Assembly (NCBI GenBank): GCA_035347995.1
Contig: DAOPQD010000001.1
Span: 46,012-110,011 of the forward strand
From: Anaerolineae bacterium
GTDB taxonomy: Bacteria > Chloroflexota > Anaerolineae > B4-G1 > SLSP01
Length of the DNA: 64,000 bases
Direction of reading: 5' to 3'
Position numbers and translations under genes: made by a program. The first letter of the stretch is position 1. Every line of letters begins with the position of its first letter. The notes beneath the pieces were generated by a model that was not told the origin of the DNA, searched no databases, and saw nothing but the letters and a program-made list of their open reading frames with translations. This document shows, one piece after another, positions 5,753 through 62,379 of the stretch.

Positions 5753-5814
5753 GAGAACGTAGACGTGCGAACGTGCGAACGTAAGATCCGCTGACTTGCT
5801 GATTCGCTTATTTT
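5753..5814. repeat. Promoter-proximal 8-bp-period tandem repeats upstream of the HAMP-GAF sensor gene (GAACGTGC type followed by GATTCGCT type)
   Basis: gagaacgt|agacgtgc|gaacgtgc|gaacgtaa followed by ctgacttg|ctgattcg|cttatttt, ending 2 nt before the RBS GGGGAG. Confidence 0.65.
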
Positions 5815-5829
5815 CAGGGGAGATTGAGC

Positions 5830-8800
5830 ATGCACAGAAAAGGCTTGAGCCTGCGTTGGCAGATGGTGCTCATCATCGTCGTGTTGCCCTTGCTGCTATT
5901 GACGCCGTTGCTGTTTTTCGCGGGTGCGCAATTCCGCAGCGAGTATCGGGAGGCGCGCTTGGGAAAAGGGCACATGATCACGCAGCAGGTACGTCAGCAC
6001 GTGGATGTAGTCGCGCCGTTCATTGCTTCGGTGCGTGATGTGCCGGGCCTGGAGCGTTACCTGCGCGATAGTATTGCCGGTCAGCCGGAGCTGGCTTTCG
6101 CGGCCCTGGTACGCGGCGATGGCATCATCGTGCTGCATTCGACGTCGGGTATGGCGGGGCAGGTCCTGATGGATCTGAACGTCCCGGATGTGCAAGTTCT
6201 CCAGACGCGCGTGCCGCAGTACGGTAACCTGCATCTCGTGGTCCGCCGCATGACTCGTCCCGACATCTCCGGGCAACGCTTGTACGCCGTGGTGGGGGCT
6301 TATAGCCCGATCGTCGATCCCCCCTGGTTGCCCTGGTTGCCGGTGGGCGGTGTGCTGATTTTGGCGCTGTTGTTACTGGTGCTGTTGCAGGTCTTCATGC
6401 GGCGCGCGGTGCTCAAACCCTTGGAGCAGCTCGCTGAGGGCGCTGCGATCGTGGGGGCGGGCGACCTTTCCTATGAAATTGGCATCCGCCGCGGCGATGA
6501 GATCGGCTTCCTGGCGCAATCGTTCAACGCCATGAGCGGTCGGTTGCGGGAGCTGGTGACGACGCTCGAGCAGCAAGTCGAAACGCGCACGGCAGACCTC
6601 GCGCGCCGTAATCAACAGCTTCAGGCGGTCTCTCTGGTCGCCCGGGAGGCGGTGACCATTCAGGACTTGCCCACGCTGTTGGAGACCACGGTCAACGCGA
6701 TTTCCCGACACTTCGGGTATTATCACGCCGGCATCTTTTGGGTAGATCAGCCGCGGGAATGGGCCGTGCTGCGCGCTGCTTCTTCAGAGGGCGGACAGCG
6801 CATGTTGGCGCGGGGACACCGTCTGCGGGTAGGACAGCAGGGCCTCGTGGGGAGCGTGGCGGCGACAGGGCAACCGCGCATCGCCCTGGATGTGGGGGAG
6901 GACGCCGTTTGGTTCGACAACCCCGACCTGCCCGAGACCCGCTCGGAGATGGCGTTGCCGCTGGTGGACACCGAGCAGCACGTTGTGGGCGTGTTGGACG
7001 TGCAGAGTTCTCAGGTGAGCGCTTTCTCTCCCGCCGACATTGAGGTCTTACAGCTGCTGGCAGATCAAGTCTCGGTGGGGCTGCGCAATGCGCTGCTCAT
7101 CGAACAGACGCAGAGCACGCTGGCCGAGCTCCAGGCCATTCAGCAGGACTACCGGCGGGAAGGCTGGGCGCGCGTGCTGAGTCGGCTCCAGGTGCAGGCG
7201 TATGAATACGATGGCGTGTTGGTCGAGCCGGTGTTGCCCTTGCCGGTGCCGGTGGAGCGCCTGACCGAAAGTAACACCCCCCTGGCCACTGGCGAGGCCG
7301 CGACGGTGATGACGCCGATGCAATACCGGGATCAGACCATCGGCATGTTGACGCTGTCGGATCCGGGGCGCGTGTGGACGGAAGAGGAATTCGCGTTGAT
7401 TCGCAGTGTGACGGATCAGGTCGCTTCGGCGCTGGAGACGGCGCGCCTCTTCGAGGAGACGCAGCGCACGGCGCGGCAGCAGGCGTTGCTCAACGCGGTC
7501 TTGCAGACAGCGGCCATGACCCTCGACCCCGATCAGGCGCTTGAGGAGATCGCGACGATTCTGGCGCGGGGTTTGGCGATGGCAGTGGGAGTCTTTATCT
7601 TCCCGCGCCGCGCCGCGACGGCGGAAGGCGGCGTGCCGCTGCCTCAAGAAGTGCGCTTGCAGGCCTTCGTGCTGCCCGAAGGTGAGAAGGCGCTCGACGC
7701 CGGGGCCTTCTATATGCTGCCCGCTGATTTGCAGATTTTCTTCCATGGGTTGATGGAGCCAGAACTGGGGAAACTGCTGCCGCTAGGACAGGTGCCATCG
7801 TTGGCCGGGAGTTACGACCTCGAGCGTGTGCTGTATGTGCCCATCCGCACGGCGACAGCGCAGGCGGGTTTCCTGGCGCTGGTGCGCCGGCAACAGGACG
7901 TGTTGCTTGACCCGGACACCCGCGCCCTGGCGCGCAACCTCGCCGGCCAGGTCGCCGTGGTCCTGGAAAACCTGCACCTCATGGAAGAGACACAGCGCCG
8001 TTCCGCCGAATTGCAGCTGCTGTATGAGGCCTCGCTGCGCTTTGGTCAGGTGCGGGATCCCGAAGCGACGGAAAGACTGGTCGTGGAAGAGGCGCAGGAG
8101 CTGCTCGTAGCGGCTGGGGCCGCCTTCTGGCGTTACGACGAGGCTCACGAGACCCTCCAGTGCGTGTGCGCGCAAGGGACGCTCACGTCCTATCAGGGGC
8201 TCGGGGTGCAACCGGGGCAGGGGCTGCCGGGCACGGCCTGGAGCGAGCGTCGGGTCATTCAGACCGGGGATTACATGACCTGGGAGCAGCTCGGTGCGGG
8301 GGAACTTTCGACCGTGGGGCCGGCGTTGGGCATCCCCTTGCTGGCAGCGCGCGGCGTGATTGGTGTGCTGTTGGTCACCCGTCCTCGCGGCGGGATGCCT
8401 TTCGACGCGGTAGTGAGCCGGCTGGCGGAACTCTTCGCCGCACAGGCGACGGTGGCTTTGGAAAACGCGCGTCTGTACCAGGAAAGCGCCCGGCGCGCGC
8501 GCGACCTGCAGCAGCTGTACGAGGCTGGCCTCGACATGATCGGGATGCGCGAGGTAGAGGCGGTGCTCACGCGGGGCGCGGAGTGGGCCTTGCGCCTCCT
8601 GGGCGTGCAGCGGACCCGCGCTTTCTTCTGGGCGCGTGGCAACGCCACTCCTTTCTCCGGTCATGCCGGGGCATCGCCCGCCTATGTGACTCCCGAAACG
8701 CTAGCCCCGCCTCGGGTCGCGGGTGTGACGGCCCGCGTGTTGCACGAGGGACAGCCGGTGATCGTCAATCGCTTGATTTCTGGGGACGAGATTGCGCCGG

Positions 8801-10308
8801 CCTTGCAAGAGCTGGGCCTGGTTTCCCAGGCCGCGGTGCCGTTGCGCCTGGGTGCGGAGACGGTGGGCGTGCTTTTCGCCAACAGCACCCAGGAGGGCTT
8901 CTTCACCGAGGAGGCGGTGCGTTTGCTGGAGTTCTTGGGGTCGCAGCTGGCGACGTCGGCGCAGAACGCGCTGCAATTCGGGCAGCTGCAGCAGACCCTG
9001 GCGGTGGTGGAGATGCAGGCCCGTTACCGCGATGCCGTCGCGCAGGGGACGGCGCAGCTGGCGGAACGGGGCACCGAATCCCTGCCGACGGTGTTGCAGC
9101 TTCTGGGGGAAACACTGGAAACTGACGCGGCGCAATACTGTGAATTGCGTTCGGAGGGCGCCGGTGGGTACTGGGAAGTGGCCGCACGGTGGACGCAGTC
9201 GAGCGCTGCCGGCCAGGCCGTGGCCGCCGCGTCCAAATGGCGCCGGGAAGATGTCCTGGAATGGCTGCCGGCCTTGCGCGCGGAGGGGATTGTCCGTGCG
9301 GATTGGCATGGCGCCAGTGCGGCGGAGCAGCGGATGTTGCAGGCCTTGGGCTTCCACTCGTTGCTGTTGATCGCGGTGCCGGGCGAGACGGCGGAGCCGA
9401 ACTTCATGGCTTTTGGCAACAGTCAGCGGGAACGCGATTGGAAGCCGGAGGAGCTGATTTCGGTGCGCACGGTGGCGGCGGCGCTTTCCAGCACCCTGGC
9501 GCGGGAGCGGCTGTTCCGCGAAGTGCAGGCGGCGCTGGCCGAGACCGAGATGTTGTACGAAGCCGGGGGCGCGCTGAACGCTGCGCAGACTTACGGGCAG
9601 ATTCTGGACGTGATGCGCCAGTACACGGCGCTCGGCAGCGGGGCGCACTTCGCGGCGACGTTGTTGTATGACCGGCCCTGGACCGAGCGTCAGCGCCCGA
9701 CGAAGGCCCTGCTGGCGGCCCGCTGGACCGCGACGCCGGCAAGCGACGTTTCCCTCCTGGCGCGGGGCAACGCCTTCTCTTTGCTGGAACCCTACCTGCG
9801 GCGCGAGCGCAGCTCGACGATCACGGACGTGACCCGCGAAGTGGAGCCCCTCGCCCCGGCGCGCATCTTTTTCGAGGAAGACCTGGGGGCGCGCACCCTC
9901 GTGTTCGCCCCGCTGGCGGCAGGCGGGCAGACCATCGGCACGCTGATGGCGGCCTTTGATGCCGTGACTCGCCTCACAGAGGAAGAGCAACGCCGATTGA
10001 GCACCCTCACAGGGCAGGCGGCGATCGCCATCCAGAACCTCTATCAGCTGGAAGCCACTGCGGCGCGGGCGCGGCGCGAGCAGCTCATCCGCGAGATCGG
10101 CGAGCAGTTGCAGGCAGCGCCGGACGTGCAGAGCGTGTTGCAGACGGCAGCGCGCGAATTGGGACGCGCTTTGGAGACGCCGCGGGCGGTAGTGCGCCTT
10201 GGCGCTGTGGGACCCGCGCGACGCAAGAAACCTACCGGAGAGCTGGCGTCGCGCGCTGCTGACGAGCCGAATCCCGTGGAAGATGATGGCGCGTCCACGG
10301 AGGAGTAG
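5830..10308 (+). CDS. Membrane sensor protein with periplasmic sensor domain, TM2, HAMP, about eight GAF modules, and no kinase or other output domain
   Basis: The track start is TTG 5824; an ATG at 5830 has RBS GGGGAG 8 nt upstream. TM1 is LIIVVLPLLLLTPLLFFAGA, followed by an extracytoplasmic region of ~150 aa, then TM2 (GGVLILALLLLVLLQVF) and HAMP (LEQLAEGAAIVGAGDLSYEIGIRRGDEIGFLAQSFNAMSGRLRELV). Repeated GAF modules follow, including the signature FGYYHAGIFWVDQPREWAVLRAASSEGG...RSEMALPL. It ends with the conserved cap motif. Confidence 0.75.
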   Translation: MHRKGLSLRWQMVLIIVVLPLLLLTPLLFFAGAQFRSEYREARLGKGHMITQQVRQHVDVVAPFIASVRDVPGLERYLRDSIAGQPELAFAALVRGDGIIVLHSTSGMAGQVLMDLNVPDVQVLQTRVPQYGNLHLVVRRMTRPDISGQRLYAVVGAYSPIVDPPWLPWLPVGGVLILALLLLVLLQVFMRRAVLKPLEQLAEGAAIVGAGDLSYEIGIRRGDEIGFLAQSFNAMSGRLRELVTTLEQQVETRTADLARRNQQLQAVSLVAREAVTIQDLPTLLETTVNAISRHFGYYHAGIFWVDQPREWAVLRAASSEGGQRMLARGHRLRVGQQGLVGSVAATGQPRIALDVGEDAVWFDNPDLPETRSEMALPLVDTEQHVVGVLDVQSSQVSAFSPADIEVLQLLADQVSVGLRNALLIEQTQSTLAELQAIQQDYRREGWARVLSRLQVQAYEYDGVLVEPVLPLPVPVERLTESNTPLATGEAATVMTPMQYRDQTIGMLTLSDPGRVWTEEEFALIRSVTDQVASALETARLFEETQRTARQQALLNAVLQTAAMTLDPDQALEEIATILARGLAMAVGVFIFPRRAATAEGGVPLPQEVRLQAFVLPEGEKALDAGAFYMLPADLQIFFHGLMEPELGKLLPLGQVPSLAGSYDLERVLYVPIRTATAQAGFLALVRRQQDVLLDPDTRALARNLAGQVAVVLENLHLMEETQRRSAELQLLYEASLRFGQVRDPEATERLVVEEAQELLVAAGAAFWRYDEAHETLQCVCAQGTLTSYQGLGVQPGQGLPGTAWSERRVIQTGDYMTWEQLGAGELSTVGPALGIPLLAARGVIGVLLVTRPRGGMPFDAVVSRLAELFAAQATVALENARLYQESARRARDLQQLYEAGLDMIGMREVEAVLTRGAEWALRLLGVQRTRAFFWARGNATPFSGHAGASPAYVTPETLAPPRVAGVTARVLHEGQPVIVNRLISGDEIAPALQELGLVSQAAVPLRLGAETVGVLFANSTQEGFFTEEAVRLLEFLGSQLATSAQNALQFGQLQQTLAVVEMQARYRDAVAQGTAQLAERGTESLPTVLQLLGETLETDAAQYCELRSEGAGGYWEVAARWTQSSAAGQAVAAASKWRREDVLEWLPALRAEGIVRADWHGASAAEQRMLQALGFHSLLLIAVPGETAEPNFMAFGNSQRERDWKPEELISVRTVAAALSSTLARERLFREVQAALAETEMLYEAGGALNAAQTYGQILDVMRQYTALGSGAHFAATLLYDRPWTERQRPTKALLAARWTATPASDVSLLARGNAFSLLEPYLRRERSSTITDVTREVEPLAPARIFFEEDLGARTLVFAPLAAGGQTIGTLMAAFDAVTRLTEEEQRRLSTLTGQAAIAIQNLYQLEATAARARREQLIREIGEQLQAAPDVQSVLQTAARELGRALETPRAVVRLGAVGPARRKKPTGELASRAADEPNPVEDDGASTEE

Positions 10309-10322
10309 GGAGACCTGAGAGT

Positions 10323-23331: not shown

Positions 23332-23766
23332 CTAAAATTGCCAGGTCCACACGGCCGTCGAGGCCTCTTCGACCTCGACGATCTTCAGCGCCTGAGCCGG
23401 ACAGGGCTTGACGCATTGTCCACAGGCGACGCATTTGAAGGCCAGCGCCTCTTGAGGGGCGTAATCCATCACGCCGTAGGGACAGAATCCCACGCACGAC
23501 ATACAGCCCACACAGAGAGCCTTCTTCAGCATCACAATGCCCTGTTTGTTGTAGTACAGCGCTTCCGTGGGGCAGACTTCGATGCACTTGCCGCATTGGA
23601 TGCAGAATGCGGCGGCAAAGCCGTCTTCCTGGGCCCGGATGTGGATGCTGGAGCGCGCTATGTCCGACGTTTTGAACCATGTCTGAGCGCATGTCGCCTC
23701 GCAGACGTGCGCTCCCTGGCATTTTTGGGGATCGAAAGCCAATACTTTCATCTTGCCTCCTCGCAT
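23332..23766 (-). CDS. 4Fe-4S dicluster ferredoxin-type protein (likely AOR electron-transfer partner)
   Basis: Multiple CxxCxxCxxxCP-like motifs (CIQCGKCIEVCP, CVGCMSCVGFCP, CVACGQCVKPCP). RBS GAGGAGG lies 4 nt before the ATG at 23766; an alternative start is MKVLAF at 23751 with GGGGAGG upstream. It sits immediately upstream of aor. Confidence 0.7.
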   Translation of the reverse strand: MRGGKMKVLAFDPQKCQGAHVCEATCAQTWFKTSDIARSSIHIRAQEDGFAAAFCIQCGKCIEVCPTEALYYNKQGIVMLKKALCVGCMSCVGFCPYGVMDYAPQEALAFKCVACGQCVKPCPAQALKIVEVEEASTAVWTWQF

Positions 23767-23784: not shown

Positions 23785-23865
23785 AGCGAATCTGCGAATG
23801 GCGAATCAGCGAATTACTTACGTTCTTACGTTCGCCCGTTCCCATGTTCGCCCGTTCCCATGTTC
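23785..23865. repeat. Promoter-proximal 8-bp-period tandem repeats in the divergent intergenic region: GCGAAT(N2) x4 then GAAC(N4)-type x6
   Basis: agcgaatctgcgaatggcgaatcagcgaatta ... cgttcttacgttcgcccgttcccatgttcgcccgttcccatgttc. Read in the orientation of the minus-strand ferredoxin/AOR operon this is gaacatgg|gaacgggc|gaacatgg|gaacgggc|gaacgtaa|gaacgtaa followed by attcgctg|attcgcca|ttcgcaga|ttcgct. Confidence 0.7.
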
Positions 23866-23905
23866 AGAGGTTGTGATACGGATATTCCGTATTATAGTGT
23901 AGCGG

Positions 23906-25399
23906 ATGATGACGGCAAATGTAGTGTCAGATTGTCCTGATAGCGACTATCGAATATCCTTATCCTTGCGGCGGTCGTGGCGGTTGCTGGCGTTGGTGGG
24001 AGTGACGTTTGTGTTGCGGGTGGTCTTCCTCGACGCGCAAAGCCTCTGGCGGGATGAGGTGGACGCCCTCAATTTTGCTACTGCGCCCTGGTCCGAGGTG
24101 TGGGGCAATTTCCTCCGCCCCGGTTGGAATGGCCCCCTCTATTTTTTGCTGCTGCGCGGTTGGGTGGCTCTCACGGGCAGAACGGCGTTTGCCCTGCGTT
24201 TTTTCTCGTTGCTGTGGGGCGTGCTCGCGATCCCCTTGATGTACGCCTTGGGGCGGCGTCACCTCGACGCGCGGACGGCGCGATGGGCGGCGGTGTTGGC
24301 GGCCTTTTCACCTTATCTCATCTGGTACTCGGCGGAAGTCAAGATGTACAGCTGGGTGCCGTTTCTGATCCTGTTGGCGCTCTATGCGCTGGATCGCGCC
24401 TGCGTCACGCCCCGGTGGAGCTGGTGGGCGCTGACCGTGGCAGGGCTCTCCCTGGCGGTCTACAGTCACATCCTTGCTACGTTGAGCATCCCCGTCGCCG
24501 TCCTCTGGTTCTGTTTGCACCCGAGGCGACATCCGCGCGCCTGGGTGGGGGCGCTGGCGGCGCTGGCGGCGCTCACGCTCCCTTATCTCCCGCTGCTTGC
24601 CTGGCAGTTCCCCATGGTGTTGGCCGATCGCGGAGTGACCGGTTTCCCGGCGCTCACCTTCGGGCAGATGGCGGGAAGCCTGCTGGTAGGGTGGAGCGCC
24701 GGCGTGCCGGCTATGGGAGGCGCCGTCGCGTCCTGGGGCAGCGCCCTCTTGGGCGTGTGGGGCGCCTGGACTCTGATCCGGCGTCGCCGCTGGCGGACCG
24801 CTGCCGCATTGGGAGCGTGGATTTTCGCGCCGCTAGGGCTGATCTGGTGGGTCTCGTTGCGCGGCCCTCTCTTCACGGATCGTTACCTGATCTGGGCCGC
24901 GCCGGCTTTCTACTTGCTTTTGGGCGCTGGATTGGCGGGACTGCGAGGACGCTGGGTGCGTCAGGGGGCGTTGGTGGCGCTGATTCTGATCGCCGGAGCG
25001 AACCTCAGCGCGCAGCTGCTGCATCCCTACAAGCCACAGTTTCGGGAGGCCGCGGCGTCCCTCCGGCTGCGGCGTTTGCCGGAGGATTTGCTGCTGTTTC
25101 AGATCCCTTACAATCGCATCATGCTGGACTATTATTCGCCAACGCCTCTGGAACCCTGGGCTGACGCGCCTTACACCAATTTCCGCGATGCGGAGGGACG
25201 TTACACGGTGACCTTCGAGGCGGTGGATGCTCAGCTGCGCGCGCTCACGCAGGGGTATCAGCGGGTGTGGCTGGTGTATTCTGAAGCCACGCTCTGGGAC
25301 GAGCGCGAGCTGGTGAAGGCCTGGCTGGACATTCACGGGCGCCTCCTCTATGAGCAGCAGTTCCTGATGGTCTCGCTGGCGTGTTACGAACTGCCATGA
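23906..25399 (+). CDS. GT-C fold glycosyltransferase, PMT/ArnT (GT39/GT83)-like membrane protein
   Basis: An 11-12 TM protein. The first extracytoplasmic loop has the catalytic DE motif (QSLWRDEVDALNF) of PMT/ArnT-family enzymes, followed by W/R-rich loops. There is a TATAGT hexamer 7 nt upstream of the ATG and no RBS, making it a possible leaderless transcript. Confidence 0.7.
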   Translation: MMTANVVSDCPDSDYRISLSLRRSWRLLALVGVTFVLRVVFLDAQSLWRDEVDALNFATAPWSEVWGNFLRPGWNGPLYFLLLRGWVALTGRTAFALRFFSLLWGVLAIPLMYALGRRHLDARTARWAAVLAAFSPYLIWYSAEVKMYSWVPFLILLALYALDRACVTPRWSWWALTVAGLSLAVYSHILATLSIPVAVLWFCLHPRRHPRAWVGALAALAALTLPYLPLLAWQFPMVLADRGVTGFPALTFGQMAGSLLVGWSAGVPAMGGAVASWGSALLGVWGAWTLIRRRRWRTAAALGAWIFAPLGLIWWVSLRGPLFTDRYLIWAAPAFYLLLGAGLAGLRGRWVRQGALVALILIAGANLSAQLLHPYKPQFREAAASLRLRRLPEDLLLFQIPYNRIMLDYYSPTPLEPWADAPYTNFRDAEGRYTVTFEAVDAQLRALTQGYQRVWLVYSEATLWDERELVKAWLDIHGRLLYEQQFLMVSLACYELP

Positions 25400-33137: not shown

Positions 33138-33166
33138 CCTTCACCTCTTTTTTTCGCGTAGCCAGA

Positions 33167-33194
33167 TTGGGATTTACACATTGGGATTTACACA
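33167..33194. repeat. Perfect tandem 14-bp direct repeat (TTGGGATTTACACA x2) about 30 nt upstream of the small membrane protein gene
   Basis: ttgggatttacacattgggatttacaca. In gene orientation this reads TGTGTAAATCCCAA x2 directly followed by the RBS region. Confidence 0.7.
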
Positions 33195-45061: not shown

Positions 45062-45156
45062 TGCCGGGGATGAGTGAGCGGGCCACCGACATGTGGCCCG
45101 CTTGCAGTAACGGGCTCCCTCTCAAAAAAACAACGCGCTTCAGCGCCGTCGTCTGG

Positions 45157-45198
45157 GTCAGGCTGGAGATGGAATCCCCAGCCTGACTTTATTTTTGC
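45157..45198 (+). terminator. Rho-independent terminator of secF; the hairpin is a copy of the REP-like module X
   Basis: gtcaggctgg-agatggaatcc-ccagcctgac followed by TTTATTTTTG. The stem sequence GGCTGG(A/G)GAT...CCCAGCC recurs at ~49790 and ~63025. Confidence 0.7.
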
Positions 45199-49705: not shown

Positions 49706-49784
49706 GGCAGCGCGTCAAGCTCAGAAAGATGCCATGTGCTGGCGCACCTCATCCAGGCATGAAAATGTAAGTCGTGAGGCGTGA

Positions 49785-49849
49785 GTTCGGCTGGGGATTC
49801 CATCCCCAGCCTGACAGGAGCCAACCGCGCTGAAGCGCGGTGTTGGAGG
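49785..49849. repeat. REP-like mosaic palindromic element (modules X and Y) downstream of the VWA gene
   Basis: gttcggctggggattccatccccagcctgacaggagccaaccgcgctgaagcgcggtgttgg. Hairpin 1 is ggctgggga/tccccagcc and hairpin 2 is caaccgcgc-tgaa-gcgcggtg. It is related to the copies at ~45160, ~63021 and ~63241. Confidence 0.7.
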
Positions 49850-49940
49850 ACGTAGCAGCCCCGGGGGCCAGGAATTTCTAATCTTACTTGTGAAATTCGT
49901 GTTCATTCGAGGCCATTTTCGAAGGAAGATCTCATACAGA

Positions 49941-51764: not shown

Positions 51765-51825
51765 GGTTGAAATCTCCTTACTTTGATTTGCTGATGGTGA
51801 CAATGCTGGAACGATATCCTTACGG

Positions 51826-52752: not shown

Positions 52753-52773
52753 TTGAATCCCTTGTTAATGTTT

Positions 52774-52841: not shown

Positions 52842-53063
52842 CCCAATCAGAAACGCAAGAGTCAAATGTCATTCCATCCAAAACTTGATTCTGTCTCCGG
52901 GCTCCATGGAGCGGTATTTGTTGAATCGGGGACGCTGCGCTGGGCCGGCGGAATGGCGTTTGATTGCTGCCGGGTTTCGGCTACAATCGAGGGGCGGCCA
53001 TGCCCGGCGCTGACGTGTCAGGCGTGACTTTACCCTTCCCGGGTCGGTTCAACGAGGATACCC

Positions 53064-53603: not shown

Positions 53604-53608
53604 GGGAG

Positions 53609-54562: not shown

Positions 54563-55026
54563 GGTGCGCTCGCCGGCTCTTTTTCGAGGATGAGGGTGAC
54601 CGGCCCGTCGTTGACGAGCTCGACTTCCATGTGAGCGCCGAAGATGCCGGTTTCCACGGGCAATTGCAGCTCGCGCAGCGCCTCCCGCAGGGCCGCGCAG
54701 TATTGCGTGACCAGAGGTTCGGCGATTTCCGGCGGCGCGGCCTGGGTGAAGGAAGGACGAAAGCCGCGACGAATGTCTCCGTGCAGGGTGAATTGGGAGA
54801 TCACCAACACGCCGCCCTGGATGTCCTGTACCGACAGATTCATCTTCCCCTCAGCATCGGAAAAAATGCGCAGGTTGGCGGTCTTGTGCGCCAGCCAGCG
54901 AGCCTCCTTTTCCGTATCCCCTGCGGCGATGCCGAGCAGGACCAGCAATCCCGGCCCGATGGCGCCGACGCGGTGGCCTTCCACGGTGACCGAAGCGCGA
55001 GTGACCCGTTGAATGACGGCACGCAT
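54559..55026 (-). CDS. dtd: D-aminoacyl-tRNA deacylase
   Basis: The start is taken at MRAVIQRV (55026); the track ORF extends to 55095 in-frame upstream. Conserved Dtd motifs are present: SQFTL and NDGPVTLIL. About 155 aa. Confidence 0.85.
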
Positions 55027-55028
55027 CG

Positions 55029-55409
55029 TTATCTCCCGGCGGCGACGACTGAGGCGATGGCCTGTCCCCCGTCGTGGGTGAGGCTCACGGCCCATTCGGT
55101 GAGCTGTTGTGAGCGGGCCAACGTTTCGGCATAGCCATTCAAGACGATGATGGGGCGTCCGCTGGGGGTGTTGAGGATTTCGACTTCATGCCAGCGGATG
55201 CCTACCGGCGACAACAATCTCAAGCCCACTCCTAGCGTCTTGGCGACGGCTTCTTTGGCCGCGAAGTGCGCGGCCACCTCTGCCGGTTCCCGCCGAAGGT
55301 GCAGCAGCTCCCTGGGGGTGAAGATGCGCTCCAGAAACCGTTCGCCGTGCCGTTCGAGGACGCGCGCCATCCGGCGAATTTCGACGACGTCAATGCCATT
55401 GGCCAACAT
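55029..55409 (-). CDS. acpS: Holo-[acyl-carrier-protein] synthase (4'-phosphopantetheinyl transferase)
   Basis: 126 aa beginning [17 protein letters not shown] (AcpS pattern GiDiveixR) and containing FTPRE...[12 protein letters not shown]. The track ORF is extended upstream in-frame (55817) with no homology, which I rejected. Confidence 0.8.
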
Positions 55410-55422
55410 TTGCCCCTCGACT

Positions 55423-56703
55423 TCAGGCCTGCGGCGGCCCCGAGACACCCAGCGCGAAGGCGGCGGGATTGAGCCAGCGCTGTGCGACGCTTTGGATGTC
55501 CGCTGCGGTGATCGCGGAAATGCGTTCTTCGTAGCGCAGCAGATAATCCAATCCCAACTCGAAGCGCTCGATGTGGGTGAGGTTGCCGGCGACGCCCTCG
55601 TTCGTCTCCAGGCGCAGCGGCAGGCTGCCGATGAGGTAGGCCTGGTTGTCCGCGAGTTCAGCGGCAGGGACGGGTTCCTCGTGCAGGCGCTGGACTTCGT
55701 CCAGGATGAGGGCGATGGCTTTCTCGACCTGGGCGGGATGCACGCCGGCGCGGGCCTGCCAGGGCCCCGGGCCGATAGCGCTCTCGAGGCTGCTGTAGAC
55801 GTAGTAGGCGAGGCCATTTTGCGAACGCACTTGCTCGCCGAGCCGTCCCATCATCCCAAAGATGCCCAGGACGGTGTTGGCGAGCTGGCACGCGAGGAAA
55901 TCCGGCGAGCGTCGCGCCGGTCCGGGCCAGCCGAGCACCAGGTCGGTCTGCGTTTTTTCCGGCAAGGGGACGTATTGCTCGCGGCGCGTGGTAAGCGGCG
56001 GCACTGCGGGCAGCGGCGGGCGCGGGGGACGGGCGCCTTCCCAATCCCCAAAGGCATTTTGAACGGCGGTGAGAGCGGCCTCTACCTTGACGGCGCCGAC
56101 GATGGTGATGACCATCCCCTGTGGCTTGATGCAGCGTTCGTGGAAGCTGCGCAAGTCGTCGCGGCGCAGGCGTCTCACACTGTCCAGGGTGCCGCTGACC
56201 TGGCGGTGGTAGGGATGCGCAGCGGGATAGGCGAGTTCGTGAAAGGCGCGGGAGGCGCGGGCGCGGGTGTCGAATTCTTGCTCACGCAGGGCGCTGAGCA
56301 GCTCGGCGCGCGCGCGTTCGACTTGCTCTGGCGCGAAGGTGGGATTTCGCATCACGTCGCTGCAGATGTCCAGCAGCAGCGGCAGCTGCTCCGTCAGCCC
56401 CTTGGCACCGAAGGCGGTGCTGTGCACACCGGCAGAAAAGCCGAAGGTCGCACCGACGGACTCCACTTCCTCATACAGCTGCTCGAAGGGACGGCGACGG
56501 GTGCCGCGCTCCATGACGTCCACGGCCAGACTGGCGAGGCCTTCCTGGTCTTGGGGGTCGTCTTCCGCTCCGGCGAGCAGATAGCCGTCAAGGACCACGG
56601 ACGGGCTGGCAAAGTTCTCGCGGGCCAGGACGGTGATGCCGTTGGGCAGAGTCTGCCGCAGCACATCGGCGGGGCCGGGTAACGCAACCTTGTTTCGGCG
56701 CAT
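55423..56703 (-). CDS. M16-family peptidase homolog lacking the HxxEH zinc motif (likely non-catalytic partner subunit)
   Basis: The start is taken at MRRNKVALPG (56703) with RBS AAGGAGA. There is an M16 fold pattern (N-terminal LPNGITVLARENF..), but no HxxEH is found in the N-domain. Confidence 0.7.
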   Translation of the reverse strand: MRRNKVALPGPADVLRQTLPNGITVLARENFASPSVVLDGYLLAGAEDDPQDQEGLASLAVDVMERGTRRRPFEQLYEEVESVGATFGFSAGVHSTAFGAKGLTEQLPLLLDICSDVMRNPTFAPEQVERARAELLSALREQEFDTRARASRAFHELAYPAAHPYHRQVSGTLDSVRRLRRDDLRSFHERCIKPQGMVITIVGAVKVEAALTAVQNAFGDWEGARPPRPPLPAVPPLTTRREQYVPLPEKTQTDLVLGWPGPARRSPDFLACQLANTVLGIFGMMGRLGEQVRSQNGLAYYVYSSLESAIGPGPWQARAGVHPAQVEKAIALILDEVQRLHEEPVPAAELADNQAYLIGSLPLRLETNEGVAGNLTHIERFELGLDYLLRYEERISAITAADIQSVAQRWLNPAAFALGVSGPPQA

Positions 56704-56730
56704 ACAATCTCCTTCGAATTTTTTCTCCCC

Positions 56731-56759
56731 CTCCCCGACGGCGCATCGCCGTCGGGGAG
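56731..56759. repeat. 13-bp perfect-stem hairpin in the intergenic region between the two M16 peptidase genes
   Basis: ctccccgacggcg-cat-cgccgtcggggag is flanked by G/C-rich runs and lies ~25 nt upstream of the downstream M16 gene RBS. It is a candidate mRNA processing/stability element, or a REP-like element. Confidence 0.5.
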
Positions 56760-56870
56760 GGGGCAGGGGGTGGGGCAAAAGCTACAGATTACAAAGGTTC
56801 AGCCATCGCCGTCTGGCTACCTGGCGCCAGGCTGAACAGTTACAAAAATATAGAAACCGTGCCTACGGGT

Positions 56871-56905
56871 CCCCGTTCGCACGTTCCCCCGTTCGCACGT
56901 TTGCG
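56871..56905. repeat. 8-bp-period tandem repeats (AACGTGCG/AACGGGGG type) just downstream of the catalytic M16 gene stop
   Basis: ccccgttcgcacgttcccccgttcgcacgtttgcg. In gene (minus) orientation this reads cgcaaacgtgcgaacgggggaacgtgcgaacgggg, the same family as the repeats at 5753-5785, 23817-23865 and 62350-62379. Confidence 0.65.
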
Positions 56906-56927
56906 CGTTACTTTGCGTCCCCGGCGG

Positions 56928-58217
56928 TCAATCTTGGGTGAGGTAGTGCCCCACGGTCATGTTTTGGGGGCGCAGGTAGGCATCGGCGACGCGCAGGACA
57001 TCCTCGGCCGTGACCGCTTCCAGCCGCTCAAGGTAGTGCAGGAACCAGCTCGTGTCGGCGAAAATCTCGCTGAATCCCAGCCAGAAAGCCTGATTGGTGA
57101 TGCTTTCGCTGGAGAACGCGAAAAGCGCCCGCGCCTGGCGGATGGCTTTGGCCAGCTCTTCGGCGGTGATGGGTTCATGGCGGAGGAGCTCCAGTTCGGC
57201 GCGGAGGGCGTCTTCGACTTCCGTGGACGAGTGGCCGGGGAGAACCGTGGCGCTGATGCGGTACAGGCCGGGGTCCACGGTGGGAATCAGGCTGGCGTTG
57301 ACATCTGCAGCGAGCTCGCGGGCCACGACGGCGCGATAGAGCCGGCTGGTGTAGTTGGTGAGGCTGCCGCTTCCAACCAGCGAGCCGGCGCCGCCTGCCA
57401 GGACCGTGCTCAAGACCGTGAGCGCGTGCAGATCGGGATGGGTGGCTGGCGGCGTGTGAAAGGCCAGGGTCAGGTAATCTGTGCCGGCGTTCCCTTCGAC
57501 GATCACCCGGCGTTCCCCGTGCTGCGGCGGTTCCTGCGCGGTGACGTGCGGCAGAGGTTCCCGCGGCGGGATTTTGTCGAAGGCCCTTTCGGTCATGCGC
57601 AGCATTTCCCCCGCATTGAAGTCTCCAGCGGCGGCGAGGATGGCGTTGTTGGGGGTGTAGTAGGTGCGGTAGTGCGCGTAGAGGTCGTCGCGGGTCAGCG
57701 TTTGCAGATCGCACAGGTGCCCGATCGTGTCGTGGCCGTAGGGGTGAACCCGAAAGGCGGCTGCCGTCAGCTCTTCGTCCAGCAGGAAGGTGGGATCGTT
57801 TTCGTTGCCCTGGCGCTCGCTGATGACGACCGTGCGCTCAGCGGCGACCTCGTCGGCGTCGAAGAGGGCGTTGGTCATGCGGTCGGCTTCGATGTCGAGG
57901 GCGAGGTAGGCCTTGGCCGAAGGCAGCGTCTCAAAGTAAGTGGTGAAGTCATACCAGGTCATGCCGTTGAGATAGCCGCCTTCCCGCGCGATGGCCTGAT
58001 CGAGCTTTTGCCGGGGCCAACTGGCGGTCCCCTTGAACAGCATGTGTTCCACCCAGTGGGAGATGCCGGTGATTCCCAGGTGTTCGTTGCGGCTGCCGAC
58101 GCGATACCAGATCCAGACACTGGTCACCGGCGCACTGTGCGTTTCGCGCAGCACGACCGTCAGACCGTTTCCCAGCGTGGTTTTGAGCAAATTCACGGAT
58201 GCCTCCCAGAGGCGCAC
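56928..58217 (-). CDS. M16-family zinc metallopeptidase (catalytic subunit, HxxEH present)
   Basis: The inverted zincin motif HWVEH lies in GISHWVEHMLFKGT, with downstream Glu-containing regions. The M16 N/C-domain organisation is present; 429 aa. Confidence 0.8.
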   Translation of the reverse strand: MRLWEASVNLLKTTLGNGLTVVLRETHSAPVTSVWIWYRVGSRNEHLGITGISHWVEHMLFKGTASWPRQKLDQAIAREGGYLNGMTWYDFTTYFETLPSAKAYLALDIEADRMTNALFDADEVAAERTVVISERQGNENDPTFLLDEELTAAAFRVHPYGHDTIGHLCDLQTLTRDDLYAHYRTYYTPNNAILAAAGDFNAGEMLRMTERAFDKIPPREPLPHVTAQEPPQHGERRVIVEGNAGTDYLTLAFHTPPATHPDLHALTVLSTVLAGGAGSLVGSGSLTNYTSRLYRAVVARELAADVNASLIPTVDPGLYRISATVLPGHSSTEVEDALRAELELLRHEPITAEELAKAIRQARALFAFSSESITNQAFWLGFSEIFADTSWFLHYLERLEAVTAEDVLRVADAYLRPQNMTVGHYLTQD

Positions 58218-58253
58218 GAGCGCCGGATGGCTGGCCGGCGCCAGAAAGGGTTT

Positions 58254-59585
58254 TTAGCAGGCGCTTTCGCTCACGCCTTCGCCGTTGTAACCGCGTCCGA
58301 TGCCCCGGTAGATGAACCCCAGGGCCGCCATCGTCTGCGGGTCATAGATATTGCGTCCATCAATGAACACCGGCGCGCGCAGCACGGTTTTGATCCGCGC
58401 CAGGTCCAGGTGTTTGAACTCATTCCATTCGGTAACGAGGATGAGCGCGTCGGCACCCTCGGCGAGCGTGTAAGGATCGGGCATCATTTCCACGTCAGGG
58501 AGAAGAGCGCTGGCGCCGGGCATGGCAACGGGATCGTAGGCGCGGACTCTCGCCCCGGCGCGCAGGAGGCTGTGCACGATGTCTATCGAGGGGGCGTCGC
58601 GCATGTCATCCGTGTTGGGCTTGAAGGCGAGCCCCAGCAGGCCGACGACTTTGCCCTTCAGGTCTTCGGGGAAAATCTCGCGGAGCTTGCGGACCGGCGC
58701 CTGACGTTGATCGGCGTTGATGTCCATCACGGCATGGAGCAGATGGGGATGGCGTCCCTCGGTTTCGGCCATGTACGCCAGCGCTTTGACGTCCTTGGGG
58801 AAGCAGGAACCGCCCCAGCCGATGCCCGCATCGAGGAAGAAGCGCCCGATGCGCTTGTCGAGGCCCATGCCGGCGGCGACTTCCTTCACGTCGGCACCCA
58901 GGGCCTCGCAGATATTGGCAATCTCGTTGATGAACGAGATCTTGGTCGCCAGGAAAGCGTTGGAGGCGTATTTGATCATCTCCGCCGTGCGCAGGTCGGT
59001 GATCATGATGGCGGAGCGCAGCGGCAGATGCAGCTGCGCCACTTTGGCGGCGGCGTCCTTGTGGGTGGAGCCCAGCACGGTGCGGTCGGGATTCATGAAA
59101 TCGCTGATGGCGCTGCCTTCCCGCAGGAATTCCGGGCAGGAGACGACGGCGAATTCGGGCGCGTCGGGGCGACGATTGCGGATGATTTCGGCGACCCAAT
59201 CGCCCGTGCCGACGGGAACGGTGGATTTGTTGACGATGATCAGCGGATGGTCCATCACATCGGCGATGGATTCGGTGGCCATGCGCACATAGCGCAGATC
59301 GGCCTGCCCGTCTACATCCGAGGGGGTGCCGACGGCGATGAAGACGAATTCCGCCTCCTGAATCGCTTCGGCATACGACGTGGTGAAGGACAGCCGTCCC
59401 GCTTTGACATTGCGCTCAACCAGCTCCTCAAGCCCGGGCTCGTAGATGGGCAAGATGTTCTGTTTGAGGTTGGCGATACGTTCCGTGTTGATATCGAGGC
59501 AGATGACGCGGTTGCCCAGGTCAGCAAAACAGGCCCCGCTGACCAATCCCACGTAGCCGACGCCAATTACGGCAATGTTTTTCAT
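58254..59585 (-). CDS. ugd: UDP-glucose 6-dehydrogenase / nucleotide-sugar dehydrogenase family
   Basis: The N-terminal Rossmann motif is [24 protein letters not shown]. The catalytic Cys region is GGSCFPKDV, and a C-terminal UDP-binding domain is present. RBS AAAGGAG. Confidence 0.85.
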
Positions 59586-59630
59586 GCATGAACTCCTTTA
59601 CCTGTTGGGATACGAATGAAGATGATACCA

Positions 59631-59668
59631 CGAATCAGCGAATCGGCGAGTAAGCGAATAAGCGAATC
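59631..59668. repeat. 8-bp-period tandem repeats of GCGAAT(N2) type in the ugd upstream region
   Basis: cgaatcagcgaatcggcgagtaagcgaataagcgaatc. In gene orientation this reads gattcgct|tattcgct|tactcgcc|gattcgct|gattcg, about 45 nt upstream of the ugd ATG. Confidence 0.65.
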
Positions 59669-59683
59669 TGTGGAGTATTGCCC

Positions 59684-60505
59684 TCACAGGAACAAGATCA
59701 GCGCGCTCATTCCTGCGGCGATGAGGAGGGCGACGGCGTCGCCGGCGCGAAAGTGTAACTCGGTCATCGAGGTGCGCCCCTTGCCGCTGTGATAGCCCCG
59801 CGCTTCCATCGCCAGCGCCAGCGCCTCGGCCCGTTGCAGGCTGTTGAGGAAGAGCGGCACGAGTAACGGCAGGGTCTGACGTACCCGTTGCAGGATGCTG
59901 GTCTTGCCCGTGCCCCATTCCGCGCCGCGAGAGGCCTGCGCCTTGGCGATGCGTTCAGCCTCCAGCGCCAGGAGCGGCAGAAAACGCAAGGTTACCTGCG
60001 CCATGAGGACGAGGTCCTGCGTGGGCAGGCCGAGGGTGGTGAAGGGCCGCAACAACGTCTCGAGGCCGTGGACGAACTCCGAGGTGGAGATGATGGCCGA
60101 TGTGAGGCTGATGAGCAAAATCAAGGCGATGAAACGCGCGATGATGATGACGCCCGCCAGTACGTCTTGCGCCGAGACTTGCAGGGGTCCCAGGCTTACC
60201 AGCGCGGGGACATCGGCGGCCTGCGGCCCGATCAACATCTGCAACACGGCGAGGAATAAGATGAAGGGCAGTGGCGCGAGCAATCCGCGCAGGGCGTAGT
60301 TCAGCGGGACGCGGGCGAACAGCAGCGCCGCCAACGCGATCCCCAGGGCCAGGCCCAGCCCCTGGAGGTGCCGCGCGGCAGTGATGGCGATCAGCAGGCA
60401 GGCCCCGCTCAACAATCGCGTGCGCGGGTCGAGCCGGTGCAGCGGCGAGCCTGTCGCCAGGTATTGGCCGATGGTGACGTAACGCTGAAACTCGAAGTCA
60501 GGCAC
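59684..60505 (-). CDS. ecfT: Energy-coupling factor transporter transmembrane (T) component
   Basis: CbiQ/EcfT family pattern: the N-terminus YVTIGQYLATGSPLHRLDPRTRLL, about 5 TM helices, and the conserved C-terminal arginine-containing coupling helices (ARxxxG-like: AMEARGYHSG). Confidence 0.85.
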   Translation of the reverse strand: MPDFEFQRYVTIGQYLATGSPLHRLDPRTRLLSGACLLIAITAARHLQGLGLALGIALAALLFARVPLNYALRGLLAPLPFILFLAVLQMLIGPQAADVPALVSLGPLQVSAQDVLAGVIIIARFIALILLISLTSAIISTSEFVHGLETLLRPFTTLGLPTQDLVLMAQVTLRFLPLLALEAERIAKAQASRGAEWGTGKTSILQRVRQTLPLLVPLFLNSLQRAEALALAMEARGYHSGKGRTSMTELHFRAGDAVALLIAAGMSALILFL

Positions 60506-62219
60506 GAGGGATGAGCTCCTCCAATTGAGCTGCGAGAGCTTCCGCGGTCAGCACGCCGGGCGAGAGGGGCCAGCCGCGCGCGCGCAGCGCGCTGGCAATT
60601 TCCGCAACGGCGGGCAGACCCAGCCCCAGCGTGCGCAACTGTCCTTCATGGGAAAAGACCTCCACCGCTGGGCCGCTCAGGAGGCTGCGGCCGTCTTCCA
60701 TCACCGTCAGCGTCTCCGCCAGCCGCGCCAGGTCTTCCATGCGATGGGAGGAAGTCACCAACGTCATGCCGGCGCCGCGGAATGTCTGCAGATGCGTCAG
60801 CAGCTCGCGCCGGGAGAGGGGGTCGAGCCCGGCGGTCGGCTCGTCGAGCAGCAAAATGGCGGGCTGAAGCGCGAGAACCGCGGCCAGGGCCACTTTGCGG
60901 CGTTCCCCGCCGCTCAGCGCGAAGGTCAGACGATCCTTGAAGGCGTTAAAGTCGAGGCCGACCAGCTCCATGGCCCACCGCACGCGCTCGCGCAGAGCCT
61001 GGCCCTCCAGCCCCTGCAGCCGCGGCCCGAAGGCAATTTCATCCCCGACGTACTGTTCGAAGATTTGCAGCTCCGGCATCTGGAATGCCAGCCCGGCGGT
61101 GCGACGGACGGCCCGCAGGTCCAGGCGCGGGTCGTTGAGGTCGAATTCGCCGATGCGCACGCGGCCTTCCTGCGGACGCAGCAAGCCGTTAAGATGCTGC
61201 AGCAGCGTGGATTTTCCTGAGCCTGTCGCGCCGAGTAAGCCATGCGCTCCATGGTCGGGGATGCTCAGGGTCACATTGCGCAGCGCGCGGTGTTCGAGGG
61301 GCGTGCCCTTGAGGTAGACGTGGCCTAGTGCCTCGACCTCGATCAGCTCGGGGCCGACGACGTGCGGTTCTGGCGGGGGCGGGGGCGGCGCCGGCGTCGC
61401 GGTGACCCGATGCGGCAGCGCATCGAGGGCGCTGGTCAGCGCGGGGGCGGTGAGCAGATTCGGCGGCAGGGCCGGGAAACTCTGGCGCAGGCGACGGCTC
61501 AGCAGCGCGATGGGGGGCAGTTCCAGGCTGAGTGTGTGCAGCGTGTCCTCGTCGGCGAAGACCTCTGACGGTGGGCCATCGAGAGCCACGCGGCCGCGAT
61601 CCATCACGATCACGCGCCCGGCATCGGTGGCCTCGTCCATGAAGTGTGTGATGGTGATGACAGTGACGCCTTCCGCGTGCAGCTGCGCCATCATCAGCCG
61701 GACGGTGCGCCGCCCGGCGGGGTCGAGCATCGCAGTGGCCTCGTCGAAGACGATGCAGCGCGGTTGCACGGCGAGCACACCGGCTAACGCCGCGCGCTGC
61801 ATCTGTCCTGCCGAGAGGTGATGGGGCGGGCGCAGGCGCACTTCCCAGAGACCGACCGTCTCCAGAGCCTGGCGCACTCGCGCGCGGATTTCATCGGGCG
61901 GCAAGCCCATGTTTTCGGGGCCGAAGGCGACATCTTCCTCGATAGTCGCGGCGATGATCTGATCATCGGGGCGTTGGAAGACCATGCCTACCGTCTGACG
62001 GATGGCGAGACGATGCGTGCGCTCGCGGGTGTCCATCCCGGCGATGGCAACTGTCCCGGCGGTGGGGATTAGCAGGGCGTTGAGGTGGCGCGCGAGCGTG
62101 GACTTGCCGGAGCCGTTCGCCCCAACGATGGCGACATATTCGCCGGCTTCGATGCGAAGCGTGACGCCGTCGAGCGCGGGAGGTGTGTTGGGGTCAGGCG
62201 CGGCGTAAGTAAAACGCAC
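60498..62219 (-). CDS. ecfA: Fused duplicated ECF transporter ATPase (EcfA1-EcfA2 fusion, two ABC nucleotide-binding domains)
   Basis: Two Walker A motifs (GANGSGKSTL and GATGSGKSTL), two ABC signatures (LSAGQMQRAAL and LSGGERRKVAL) and two Walker B motifs (IVFDEATAMLD and LLLDEPTAGLD). It overlaps ecfT by 8 nt. Confidence 0.85.
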   Translation of the reverse strand: MRFTYAAPDPNTPPALDGVTLRIEAGEYVAIVGANGSGKSTLARHLNALLIPTAGTVAIAGMDTRERTHRLAIRQTVGMVFQRPDDQIIAATIEEDVAFGPENMGLPPDEIRARVRQALETVGLWEVRLRPPHHLSAGQMQRAALAGVLAVQPRCIVFDEATAMLDPAGRRTVRLMMAQLHAEGVTVITITHFMDEATDAGRVIVMDRGRVALDGPPSEVFADEDTLHTLSLELPPIALLSRRLRQSFPALPPNLLTAPALTSALDALPHRVTATPAPPPPPPEPHVVGPELIEVEALGHVYLKGTPLEHRALRNVTLSIPDHGAHGLLGATGSGKSTLLQHLNGLLRPQEGRVRIGEFDLNDPRLDLRAVRRTAGLAFQMPELQIFEQYVGDEIAFGPRLQGLEGQALRERVRWAMELVGLDFNAFKDRLTFALSGGERRKVALAAVLALQPAILLLDEPTAGLDPLSRRELLTHLQTFRGAGMTLVTSSHRMEDLARLAETLTVMEDGRSLLSGPAVEVFSHEGQLRTLGLGLPAVAEIASALRARGWPLSPGVLTAEALAAQLEELIPRA

Positions 62220-62349
62220 GTCATGAAATTCGATGAGCGCCGTCGTGCACCTCCTGCTCTCTGAAATGGATCGGCCTTGCAGGCCGCATTATAACCTTGG
62301 TGAGGGGGAGTGTCAAAGCGGCGCTTCGCGGTATAATAGCCGTGGCAAA

Positions 62350-62379
62350 GACGTGGGGACGTGCGAACGTGGGCACGTG
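62350..62379. repeat. 8-bp-period tandem repeats ACGTG(G/C)G type between the -10 element and the RBS of the ECF S-component gene
   Basis: gacgtggg|gacgtgcg|aacgtggg|cacgtg. It is preceded by TATAAT (62332-62337) and followed by the RBS GAAGGAGGAGG. Confidence 0.65.

Follow-up and report, generated by a model that had tools for sequence, protein, structure and literature searches.

The 64,000-nt stretch analysed here (the window; contig DAOPQD010000001.1 of assembly GCA_035347995.1) comes from an uncultured Anaerolineae bacterium of anaerobic digesters and contains five short arrays of tandem 8-nt repeats, each lying between genes. The units belong to two families, named T1 (GAACGTGC-like) and T2 (GATTCGCT-like); the octamer arrays have also been written (GAACGUGC)n and (GAUUCGCU)n. 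Both families occur together at sites 1 and 2, while sites 3 and 5 contain T1 only and site 4 contains T2 only. A 5-bp core, GCGAA/TTCGC, is conserved in both families in opposite orientation. A preliminary description of the window had reported the five arrays, and they were recovered at the same places by direct reading, by Tandem Repeats Finder (TRF) and by a lag-8 autocorrelation scan. TRF places the period-8 arrays at 5763-5782, 23785-23865, 56871-56909, 59631-59668 and 62350-62379 (sites 1 to 5), with 2.5-4.8 copies at each. The identities given earlier to the neighbouring genes (HAMP-GAF sensor, AOR with 4Fe-4S ferredoxin, PMT_2/GT-C and ECF S component) agree with Pfam.

The arrays are not random. 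Over the full 64 kb the lag-8 scan flagged these five regions and none besides, compared to a mean of 0.44 and a maximum of 3 in 200 block shuffles. Similarly, 14-mer searches allowing up to 3 mismatches returned 18 matches for T1 (7.0 +/- 2.6 in shuffled sequence) and 17 for T2 (8.0 +/- 2.9), and no shuffle scored as high for either family. Six independent assemblies of the one strain (JGI, ENA and three SRA runs) agree exactly in the arrays, which are therefore not assembly artefacts; since the arrays are stable within a clonal strain, they also do not resemble phase-variable contingency loci.

At site 1 a T1 array, GAACGTAG ACGTGC GAACGTGC GAACGTAA (5755-5784, + strand; detected by TRF, lag-8 scan and 14-mer search), is followed directly by a T2 array, GATCCGCT GACTTGCT GATTCGCT (5785-5808, +; 14-mer search). 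An AU-rich box, TATTTTCA, the Shine-Dalgarno (SD) sequence GGGGAG and the ATG of the HAMP-GAF sensor gene (5830-10308) complete the leader (5809-5832, +). An ortholog of this site that is 96.8% identical (L137; loci outside the window are denoted by L and a number) has the same T1 array and a T2 array one unit longer. Site 2, on the - strand, begins 26 nt downstream of a promoter-like TTGCCG-16-TATAAT (23891-23918). Its T1 array has six units, (GAACATGG GAACGGGC) x2 and then GAACGTAA x2 (23818-23865), in which a perfect 16-nt super-period points to the duplication of two-unit blocks. The T2 array ATTCGCTG ATTCGCC ATTCGCAG ATTCGCT follows (23785-23815), and then the SD GAGGAGG and ATG (23749-23762) of the 4Fe-4S ferredoxin gene, the first of the AOR pair.

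The remaining three sites lie in one divergent cluster of the order ECF-S | ABC-ABC, CbiQ, [site 4], ugd, M16, [site 3], M16. The arrays are dispersed, as first described, but the count of five unrelated transcription units was thus somewhat overstated. The T1 array of site 3, TAACGCGC AAACGTGC GAACGGGG GAACGTGC GAACGGGG (56871-56910, -), starts 18 nt past the stop codon of the first M16 gene and around 170 nt upstream of the start of the second (ATG at 56703); other repeat modules lie between, including a hairpin module, hp1 (TTCAGCCTGGCGCCAGGT...GGCTGAACCTTTGTAATCTGTAGC; 56772-56850, -). Site 4 is the T2 array GATTCGCT TATTCGCT TACTCGCC GATTCGCT GATTCGTG (59629-59668, -). It starts 16 nt past the CbiQ stop codon and runs to the extended -10 box of ugd, TGGTATCAT (59622-59630, -), which is conserved in five genomes. 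At site 5 the T1 array GACGTGGG GACGTGCG AACGTGGG CACGTG (62350-62379, +) precedes an AU-rich box, TTTATTTTTG, the SD AAGGAGGAGG and the ATG (62380-62409, +) of the ECF S-component gene (62407-62964). The promoter of this gene, GTGTCA-16-TATAAT (62310-62337, +), overlaps back-to-back the perfect consensus promoter TTGACA-17-TATAAT of the ABC-CbiQ-ugd operon (62288-62316, -).

Orientation, order and promoter position

A metagenome scan for the T1-T2 junction pattern returned 13 contigs with about seven distinct composite sites; extra arrays outside that pattern were read from the same contigs and from the sequence just beyond the window. Once the five window sites are added, the lineage has 16 different spacers that carry an array and whose downstream gene can be identified (the others being L001:1677, L129, L126 (two), L130 (two), L133:3919, L128, L134:1844 and L135 (two)). 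In all 16 the array is in the sense orientation to that gene and no reversed spacer was found among them, which bears out the early observation that orientation flips with the gene strand. All T1/T2 arrays of the related loci are, like the five in the window, intergenic, so that the placement in leaders and spacers, outside coding sequence, also stands. In 154 kb of non-redundant lineage sequence 21 lag-8 and 10 lag-7 arrays were counted, far above any other non-coding period.

The order of the families is equally regular. It had been stated that T1 always comes first, then T2, then the ribosome-binding site; the window shows this directly just twice, and every composite in the related contigs follows the same order, with T2 before T1 seen in none. 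These include composites outside the search pattern, namely L126:4097, L130:1 and the equivalents of sites 4 and 5 in L139, L143 and L145. The layout is uniform: a -10 box of the sigma-70 type, or else an upstream stop codon, comes first; the T1 units behind it are GAACGTGN or GAAGGTGN, the final one often being GAACGTAAG. T2 units follow, in the variants GAYTCGCY, TTTTCGCC and GACTGCT, and sometimes a third family, T3, made of heptamers (CATTACG/CACTTACG). The cassette ends with an AU-rich box containing the SD, typically (TC)TATTTTCGAAGGAG, and the start codon. A canonical, GGAGG-like SD lies downstream of every array, the array ending around 8-170 nt before it; from the end of T2 the distance is often 8-14 nt, with 28 nt at site 2 and no adjacent SD at site 4.

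The position relative to promoters is variable. Downstream of the -10 are the arrays of sites 2 and 5 (at site 5 the array begins at 62350, 13 nt after the end, at 62337, of a promoter that is conserved across four genomes), and just past the window, at L001:1677, a T1 array comes directly after a near-consensus TTGTCA-17-TATACT. At site 4, by contrast, the array has the CbiQ stop codon on one side and the extended -10 of ugd on the other, at around -15 to -55 from the presumed transcription start; it is upstream of this promoter and not between promoter and ribosome-binding site. The arrays at sites 3 and 4, L126:1637 and L130:7842 begin about 10-35 nt past an upstream stop codon, and several in the related contigs are operon-internal, between co-directional genes with no promoter in sight. 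The common denominator is a presumably transcribed, untranslated spacer that is read one way, with no fixed promoter position. Two contigs, L025 and L130, both begin within a T1 array; such arrays break metagenome assemblies, and therefore array counts based on metagenome-assembled genomes are underestimates.

Predicted RNA structure and variation among relatives

The preliminary description had also raised the possibility of a structured 5' untranslated region (UTR). A specific form of this would be that T1 and T2 pair as a long imperfect leader hairpin, acting as a 5' stabiliser, a processing site or, with the U-rich box, an attenuator. The reverse complement of T2, AGCGAATC, has GCGAA in common with T1, the predicted minimum free energy fold of site 2 does pair T1 with T2, there is a U-rich tract behind T2, and a terminator-like hairpin call falls at site 5. 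Further, among the matches listed from other phyla (see below) many arrays are followed by a perfectly inverted array, and a similar pair, GAGCAGT/CTGCTCA, is present in the relative L141. Nevertheless, ten composite leaders gave a mean folding z of -0.15 against dinucleotide shuffles (range -2.6 to +2.2), and the five window sites gave values from +0.8 to -1.6. When T2 was ranked for pairing with T1 among 210 octamers of the same composition it came 64th, at -22.6 kcal/mol compared to -65.5 for the true complement; T1:T2 complementarity is not beyond chance, the numbers of T1 and T2 units are unmatched, and three of the five window sites contain a single family. Terminator-like calls were at chance level (4, with 4.2 expected), and at Rfam gathering thresholds the window and nine related loci returned two tRNAs and no other family. 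A hairpin of this kind is therefore extremely unlikely, and the idea of a structured leader RNA is not upheld. The self-structure of the arrays is near the median for their composition; T1 and T2 arrays of 32 nt alone fold weakly (-10.1 and -5.5 kcal/mol), and T2 and T3, which lie towards the SD, are weakly structured in absolute terms.

Relatives were chosen as ugd homologs at graded identity and their surrounding contigs were compared. Synteny is kept in four strains at around 96% ugd nucleotide identity (L139, L143, L144 and L145) and in the more distant L140 and L141 (ugd amino acid identity 90% and 88%); L142 (82%) shares just ugd and the first M16 gene. The close strains carry arrays. 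In L140, L141 and L142 the promoter boxes and SDs are kept, the ECF S-component promoter among them, yet the spacers are short and without T1/T2 arrays: the equivalent of site 5 is a UTR of 25-30 nt, that of site 3 is 24 or 93 nt, and at site 4 the array is absent from L140 and L142 and represented in L141 by a two-unit TTACAGGA repeat only. A lag-7/8 scan of the syntenic stretches of L140 and L142 found zero arrays. L141 has unit families of its own, comprising a GCAGAGGT-type, a CTCACCC-type, the inverted GAGCAGT/CTGCTCA pair and the TTACAGGA x2 repeat.

Among the strains at around 96% identity the arrays themselves differ. At site 4 there are 0, 5, 8 or 11 T1 units with, respectively, 5, 13, 3 or 3 T2 units, of which the three promoter-proximal T2 units are conserved. 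At site 5 the four T1 units of the window compare to nine T1 units and four to five T2 units in these strains. At site 3 the modules differ wholly; the variants are hp1, a small-ORF-like (open reading frame) module with the tail of a second dispersed element, mod2, and T2, and the latter arrangement followed by T3. Several of the length differences are exact multiples of 8 (+8, +24 and +24 nt) and others are not. Since the arrays are absent from the more distant relatives and polymorphic among the close strains, they are recent, dispensable and fast-evolving, by gain and loss of units and by exchange of modules.

These comparisons bear on a DNA-level role, in which the arrays would be bound by a global transcription factor (or a nucleoid-associated protein) or would form an UP-like element; a global regulator and an UP-like element had both been suggested. 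Both families are direct repeats of the GCGAA/TTCGC core, in opposite orientation, and the position of site 4 just upstream of the ugd promoter would suit such a role; binding of IHF or HU has been speculated for the paired tandem octa- and heptanucleotide "global regulator sites" of Geobacter metallireducens (Aklujkar et al. 2009, PMC2700814). However, the promoter position is variable (sites 2 and 5 follow the -10, site 4 precedes it and others are operon-internal), the conserved promoters of the relatives work without arrays, and the number of units varies from 0 to 13 among strains at around 96% identity. Orientation tracks transcription, which an architectural site in double-stranded DNA need not do, and an 8-bp period would put successive sites on different faces of the helix. 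The arrays are also G+C-rich, unlike UP elements, lie on either side of the -10 and occur in co-directional gaps where no promoter is seen. A DNA-binding role is thus very unlikely, and neither the regulator-array nor the UP-element proposal was sustained.

Several other familiar classes were considered and set aside. The arrays are not a CRISPR array, which has repeats of 21-48 nt and unique spacers, for the 8-nt units abut and there are no spacers between them. A resemblance to the LexA box (GAAC-N4-GTTC) and to UP elements was dropped on anatomy, and an operator array or UP element with a fixed promoter position conserved in orthologs does not describe what was found. A G-quadruplex would suit only site 2 and, in other phyla, the arrays that contain G3; it does not suit T1 and T2 generally.

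Known repeat systems and the possible nature of the arrays

The units described here abut head to tail at period 8, the same families recur at dispersed loci, their placement is predominantly intergenic and unit number is polymorphic between strains; these are the features of short tandemly repeated repetitive (STRR) families, or long-unit simple sequence repeats (SSRs) with units of about 5-11 nt. A scan across phyla for three GAACG[KR]N units, using one genome per species, found at least 119 loci, including Gemmatimonadota (especially Longimicrobium), Bacteroidota, Chloroflexota, Acidobacteriota, Planctomycetota, Betaproteobacteria, cyanobacteria and Streptomyces. Among the matches listed, many loci have adjacent arrays of different octamers, or an array and its inverted copy; the other arrays in these loci have period 7 in at least 50 cases and period 8 in at least 34, with any other period from 4 to 20 seen at most 14 times. 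In several of these loci (L007-L125, from GTDB genomes of many phyla), for example L055, L088 and L019 from Longimicrobium and L050 from Gemmatimonadales, very long and near-perfect octamer arrays (GAACGGGT)n of up to about 16 units adjoin arrays of GTGAGGGT, GATGGGGT or CACTCACG, often with an inverted array next. Of 100 such GAACG-type arrays among the matches listed, 13 are sense and 23 antisense. Because there is no sense bias relative to a downstream start these matches do not form one functional family; they share a repeat habit and not a function, and the leader-oriented architecture is specific to this Anaerolineae group.

The motif had been thought undescribed, but the class to which it belongs is known, and one family in it is oriented towards start codons (PMC4679880, PMC4692102, PMC2700814, PMC6749651). 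Species-specific dispersed satellites built from 6-8-nt units have been catalogued, including (GATAGRA)n of Chloroflexus aurantiacus (Subirana and Messeguer 2019, PMC6749651). Like the arrays described here, those of Geobacter and Chloroflexus are multicopy families of 3-5 tandem 7-8-nt units, often in opposite-strand pairs, limited to one species and absent from sister species, and Chloroflexus belongs to the same phylum. They differ in that they have been read, speculatively, as IHF/HU DNA sites or as transposed satellites, and neither a gene-ward orientation nor an ordered multi-family composite beside an SD has been reported for them (PMC2700814, PMC6749651). The heptamers GGGAATC and GGGGAYT of Xanthomonas and Nostoc are over-represented intergenically (around 90%), where their arrays are single or come as inverted pairs (Rehm et al. 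2015, PMC4692102). Along with the cyanobacterial STRRs these are species-specific, dispersed 7-nt arrays of variable length with no established function; unlike the Anaerolineae arrays they have no strand preference with respect to neighbouring genes, lie nearer the upstream ORF and contain G3+ runs that form G-quadruplexes, where T1 and T2 are mostly without G-runs. In Xanthomonas the repeats keep their positions from one species to another (PMC4692102), while the arrays described here turn over between close strains.

Another reading is that the arrays are relics or ends of mobile elements. They could be foldback elements, resembling miniature inverted-repeat transposable elements (MITEs) with arms of inverted sub-repeats, or 8-bp target-site duplications that piled up as a site-specific transposon repeatedly inserted and excised. 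In G. metallireducens the distance between IS elements (insertion sequences) and the paired octamer arrays is fixed (PMC2700814). Also consistent with this, the same junctions recur before unrelated genes (for example GAACGTAAG-(2-6 nt)-YCGCTGA and GCTGATCTCTATTTTCGAAGGAG), module content is replaced between close strains, a mosaic copy without a gene is present at 49728-49930, T1 and T2 are diverged inverted versions of each other, and the periods 7 and 8 dominate in many phyla among the matches listed. However, no transposase gene was seen beside the arrays when the gene tables of their loci were read, which was not a systematic search, and no flanking target-site duplication could be defined, the available empty sites being too diverged for exact borders. 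Further, insertion leaves the strict orientation with transcription unexplained, and the stepwise changes at site 4, which spare the 3'-most T2 units, resemble slippage in situ. Taken together, a mobile origin appears unlikely.

Alternatively, and this is a possibility to be held tentatively, the arrays could be mRNA binding platforms for a single-strand RNA-binding protein that is abundant or specific to the lineage, whether S1-, Csp- or CsrA-like or of the oligomeric attenuation type. They would then form a global post-transcriptional network in which T1 and T2 are separate sites and the number of units sets occupancy. That oligomeric proteins can recognise short repeats (period 5-7 nt) is known from TRAP and HutP. 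The sense orientation of 16/16 spacers and the fixed order T1, T2, SD would be explained, as would the restriction of the arrays to presumably transcribed spacers, past promoters and within operons, and the distance of often 8-14 nt from the end of T2 to the SD, although this is 28 nt at site 2 and no SD is adjacent at site 4. Against a platform stand the same leaders without arrays in relatives, the range of 0-13 units among close strains, the loci in which either family may be missing and the functionally unrelated downstream genes; furthermore, no candidate protein has been identified.

The same idea was put forward for the closest precedent, the TAACTGA heptamers of marine Beggiatoaceae, which occur at around 170 sets per genome, mostly forward and directly before start codons, and for which binding of S1, Csp or CsrA was proposed (MacGregor 2015, PMC4679880). 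That proposal came without experiments, and a literature search for functional follow-up on these repeats found none. The likeness is considerable: both are dispersed short-unit tandem families, TAACTGA having 2-6 or more units per set, almost all intergenic; in both the forward orientation is overwhelming (16/16 spacers here) and the downstream genes are functionally unrelated; and a translational role was proposed for TAACTGA (PMC4679880). In contrast, TAACTGA is a single 7-nt unit whose arrays end a few nucleotides from the start codon and replace a recognisable ribosome-binding site (PMC4679880). The arrays of Anaerolineae, in the phylum Chloroflexota, have 8-nt units in two or three ordered families, do not end a few nucleotides from the start, retain a canonical SD and occur also upstream of a promoter -10 (site 4).

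A mosaic habit is also familiar from longer repeats. The bacterial interspersed mosaic elements (BIMEs) of E. coli, built from repetitive extragenic palindromic (REP) units, and the mycobacterial interspersed repetitive units (MIRUs) are mosaics of short modules confined to transcribed extragenic DNA, and MIRUs are in addition intercistronic, oriented with the operon and variable in copy number between strains. The arrays were nonetheless rejected as REP/BIME elements, similar as the mosaic habit in transcribed spacers is: REP units are imperfect palindromes of 20-40 nt, and those described here are non-palindromic and of 7-8 nt. MIRU units differ likewise, being 40-100 bp in length with small ORFs for translational coupling. 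The dispersed 7-8-nt repeat class is already known and poorly understood.

The explanation favoured here, with a probability of about 0.5, is that T1, T2 and T3 are microsatellite modules of the STRR or long-unit SSR type, carried in mosaic leader cassettes; slippage and recombination would alter them, and their effect would be no more than a tuning of the leader. The arrays would be lineage-specific dispersed families in transcribed untranslated spacers, that is 5' leaders and co-directional gaps. A cassette would run from purine-rich T1 through pyrimidine-rich T2, and sometimes T3, to the AU-rich box, SD and start codon; its other modules would be hp1 and mod2, both hairpin modules, together with the T3 heptamers and the AU-rich/SD box. 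Arrays may grow and shrink by slipped-strand mispairing or unequal recombination, and whole modules may be swapped between leaders through recombination among dispersed copies. They would be dispensable for expression of the downstream gene and any effect would be quantitative, perhaps by setting leader length and placing a weakly structured, pyrimidine-rich stretch beside the ribosome-binding site. Overall, the original observation is confirmed and its interpretation partly supported: the arrays are an oriented leader element, but not a regulator array, a structured RNA or an UP element.

Several points weigh against the microsatellite explanation. A neutral or filler model predicts neither the strict sense orientation of arrays that lie away from an SD (sites 3 and 4) nor the fixed order of T1 before T2; an RNA-level function or a transcription-linked process fits both at least as well, and therefore an mRNA platform stays alive as an alternative, with some room also for a mobile origin. 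The presence of the arrays in mRNAs is something we infer, and the spread of modules by recombination is read from mosaic patterns in which no donor-recipient pair was traced. The sample was around 190 kb of this lineage, less than one genome, and about six of the related composite sites came from a search pattern that itself required T1 and then T2.

A more far-reaching version, which must be considered doubtful, is that the arrays are a lineage-wide post-transcriptional code read by single-strand-binding factors, or that a transcription-linked enzyme lays down 7-8-nt units. Under the first, unit number would be a heritable expression dial for hundreds of unrelated genes; the second would explain the dominance of periods 7 and 8 in many phyla. 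Families of 7-8-nt repeats have been noted for around 35 years, in cyanobacteria, Xanthomonas, Geobacter, Chloroflexus and Beggiatoaceae, with no demonstrated function or origin. This lineage provides a clean natural experiment, as the same leaders carry 0-13 units in strains about 4% apart, against the fixed landmarks of conserved promoters and SDs and a strict rule of orientation and order. If unit number alters expression, the arrays would act as tuning knobs open to evolution in an organism that is dominant in digesters; if it has no effect, they would be a model of selfish or neutral microsatellites colonising mRNA leaders. In annotation such arrays should not be labelled operators or riboswitches.

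Further repeat modules in the window and related loci

The hp1 module of site 3 (TTCAGCCTGGCGCCAGGT..GGCGATGGCTGAACCTTTGTAATCTGTAGCTTTTGCCCC, then a C-rich/G-rich hairpin) is also present in L132, L138 and L133, and is replaced at site 3 by other modules in the strains at around 96% identity. The other dispersed element, mod2, is found upstream of genes unrelated to one another, coaX and PPK2 among them. Its core, AACCGCGCTGA(A/T)GCGCG, is invariant and its AGCTCGCTTCAGCGAAC and CCCGGAATTCATTCCGGGG hairpins are optional; the element is itself modular. Copies in the window are at 63236-63410 (+), 49800-49930 (+) and 45134-45180, the first being part of a multi-hairpin leader with ATCCGTGA-type repeats that ends in the SD and ATG of coaX (63236-63413, +). 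Others are at L001:1532-1676(-), L133:332-460(-), L133:3951-4080(-), L134:1715-1843 and L135:5220-5350(-). No Rfam match was found for mod2, and both a REP/MITE-like element and a leader RNA of an undescribed kind are conceivable.

A further recurrent module consists of an SD, ATGTGCTGGCGCAC...ATGAAAATGT and GTGAGTC/GTGAGCC heptamers. It is present in the window at 49728-49790 (+) and in leaders of L131, L132, L134, L139 and L143. The module reads as a mini-ORF of 16-22 codons (MCWRT...), but its start may equally be a hairpin, TGTGC-TGGC-GCACA. The window copy is followed by a terminator and no gene, and forms part of the gene-less mosaic copy (49728-49930, +), which comprises the mini-ORF-like hairpin module, heptamers (GTAAGTC GTGAGGC GTGA), the mod2 core, an SD-like CCATTTTCGAAGGAAG and a terminator hairpin.

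Periodic tracts are also found inside coding sequence, at L001:2632-2679 (just outside the window) and L141:1552-1585, where lag-8/lag-7 tracts lie within metH (methionine synthase); these may be linker insertions that arose from repeats and preserve the reading frame. Finally, the window contains a perfect 14-nt tandem duplication, ATTGGGATTTACAC x2.1 (33166-33194), which is unrelated to the octamer families.

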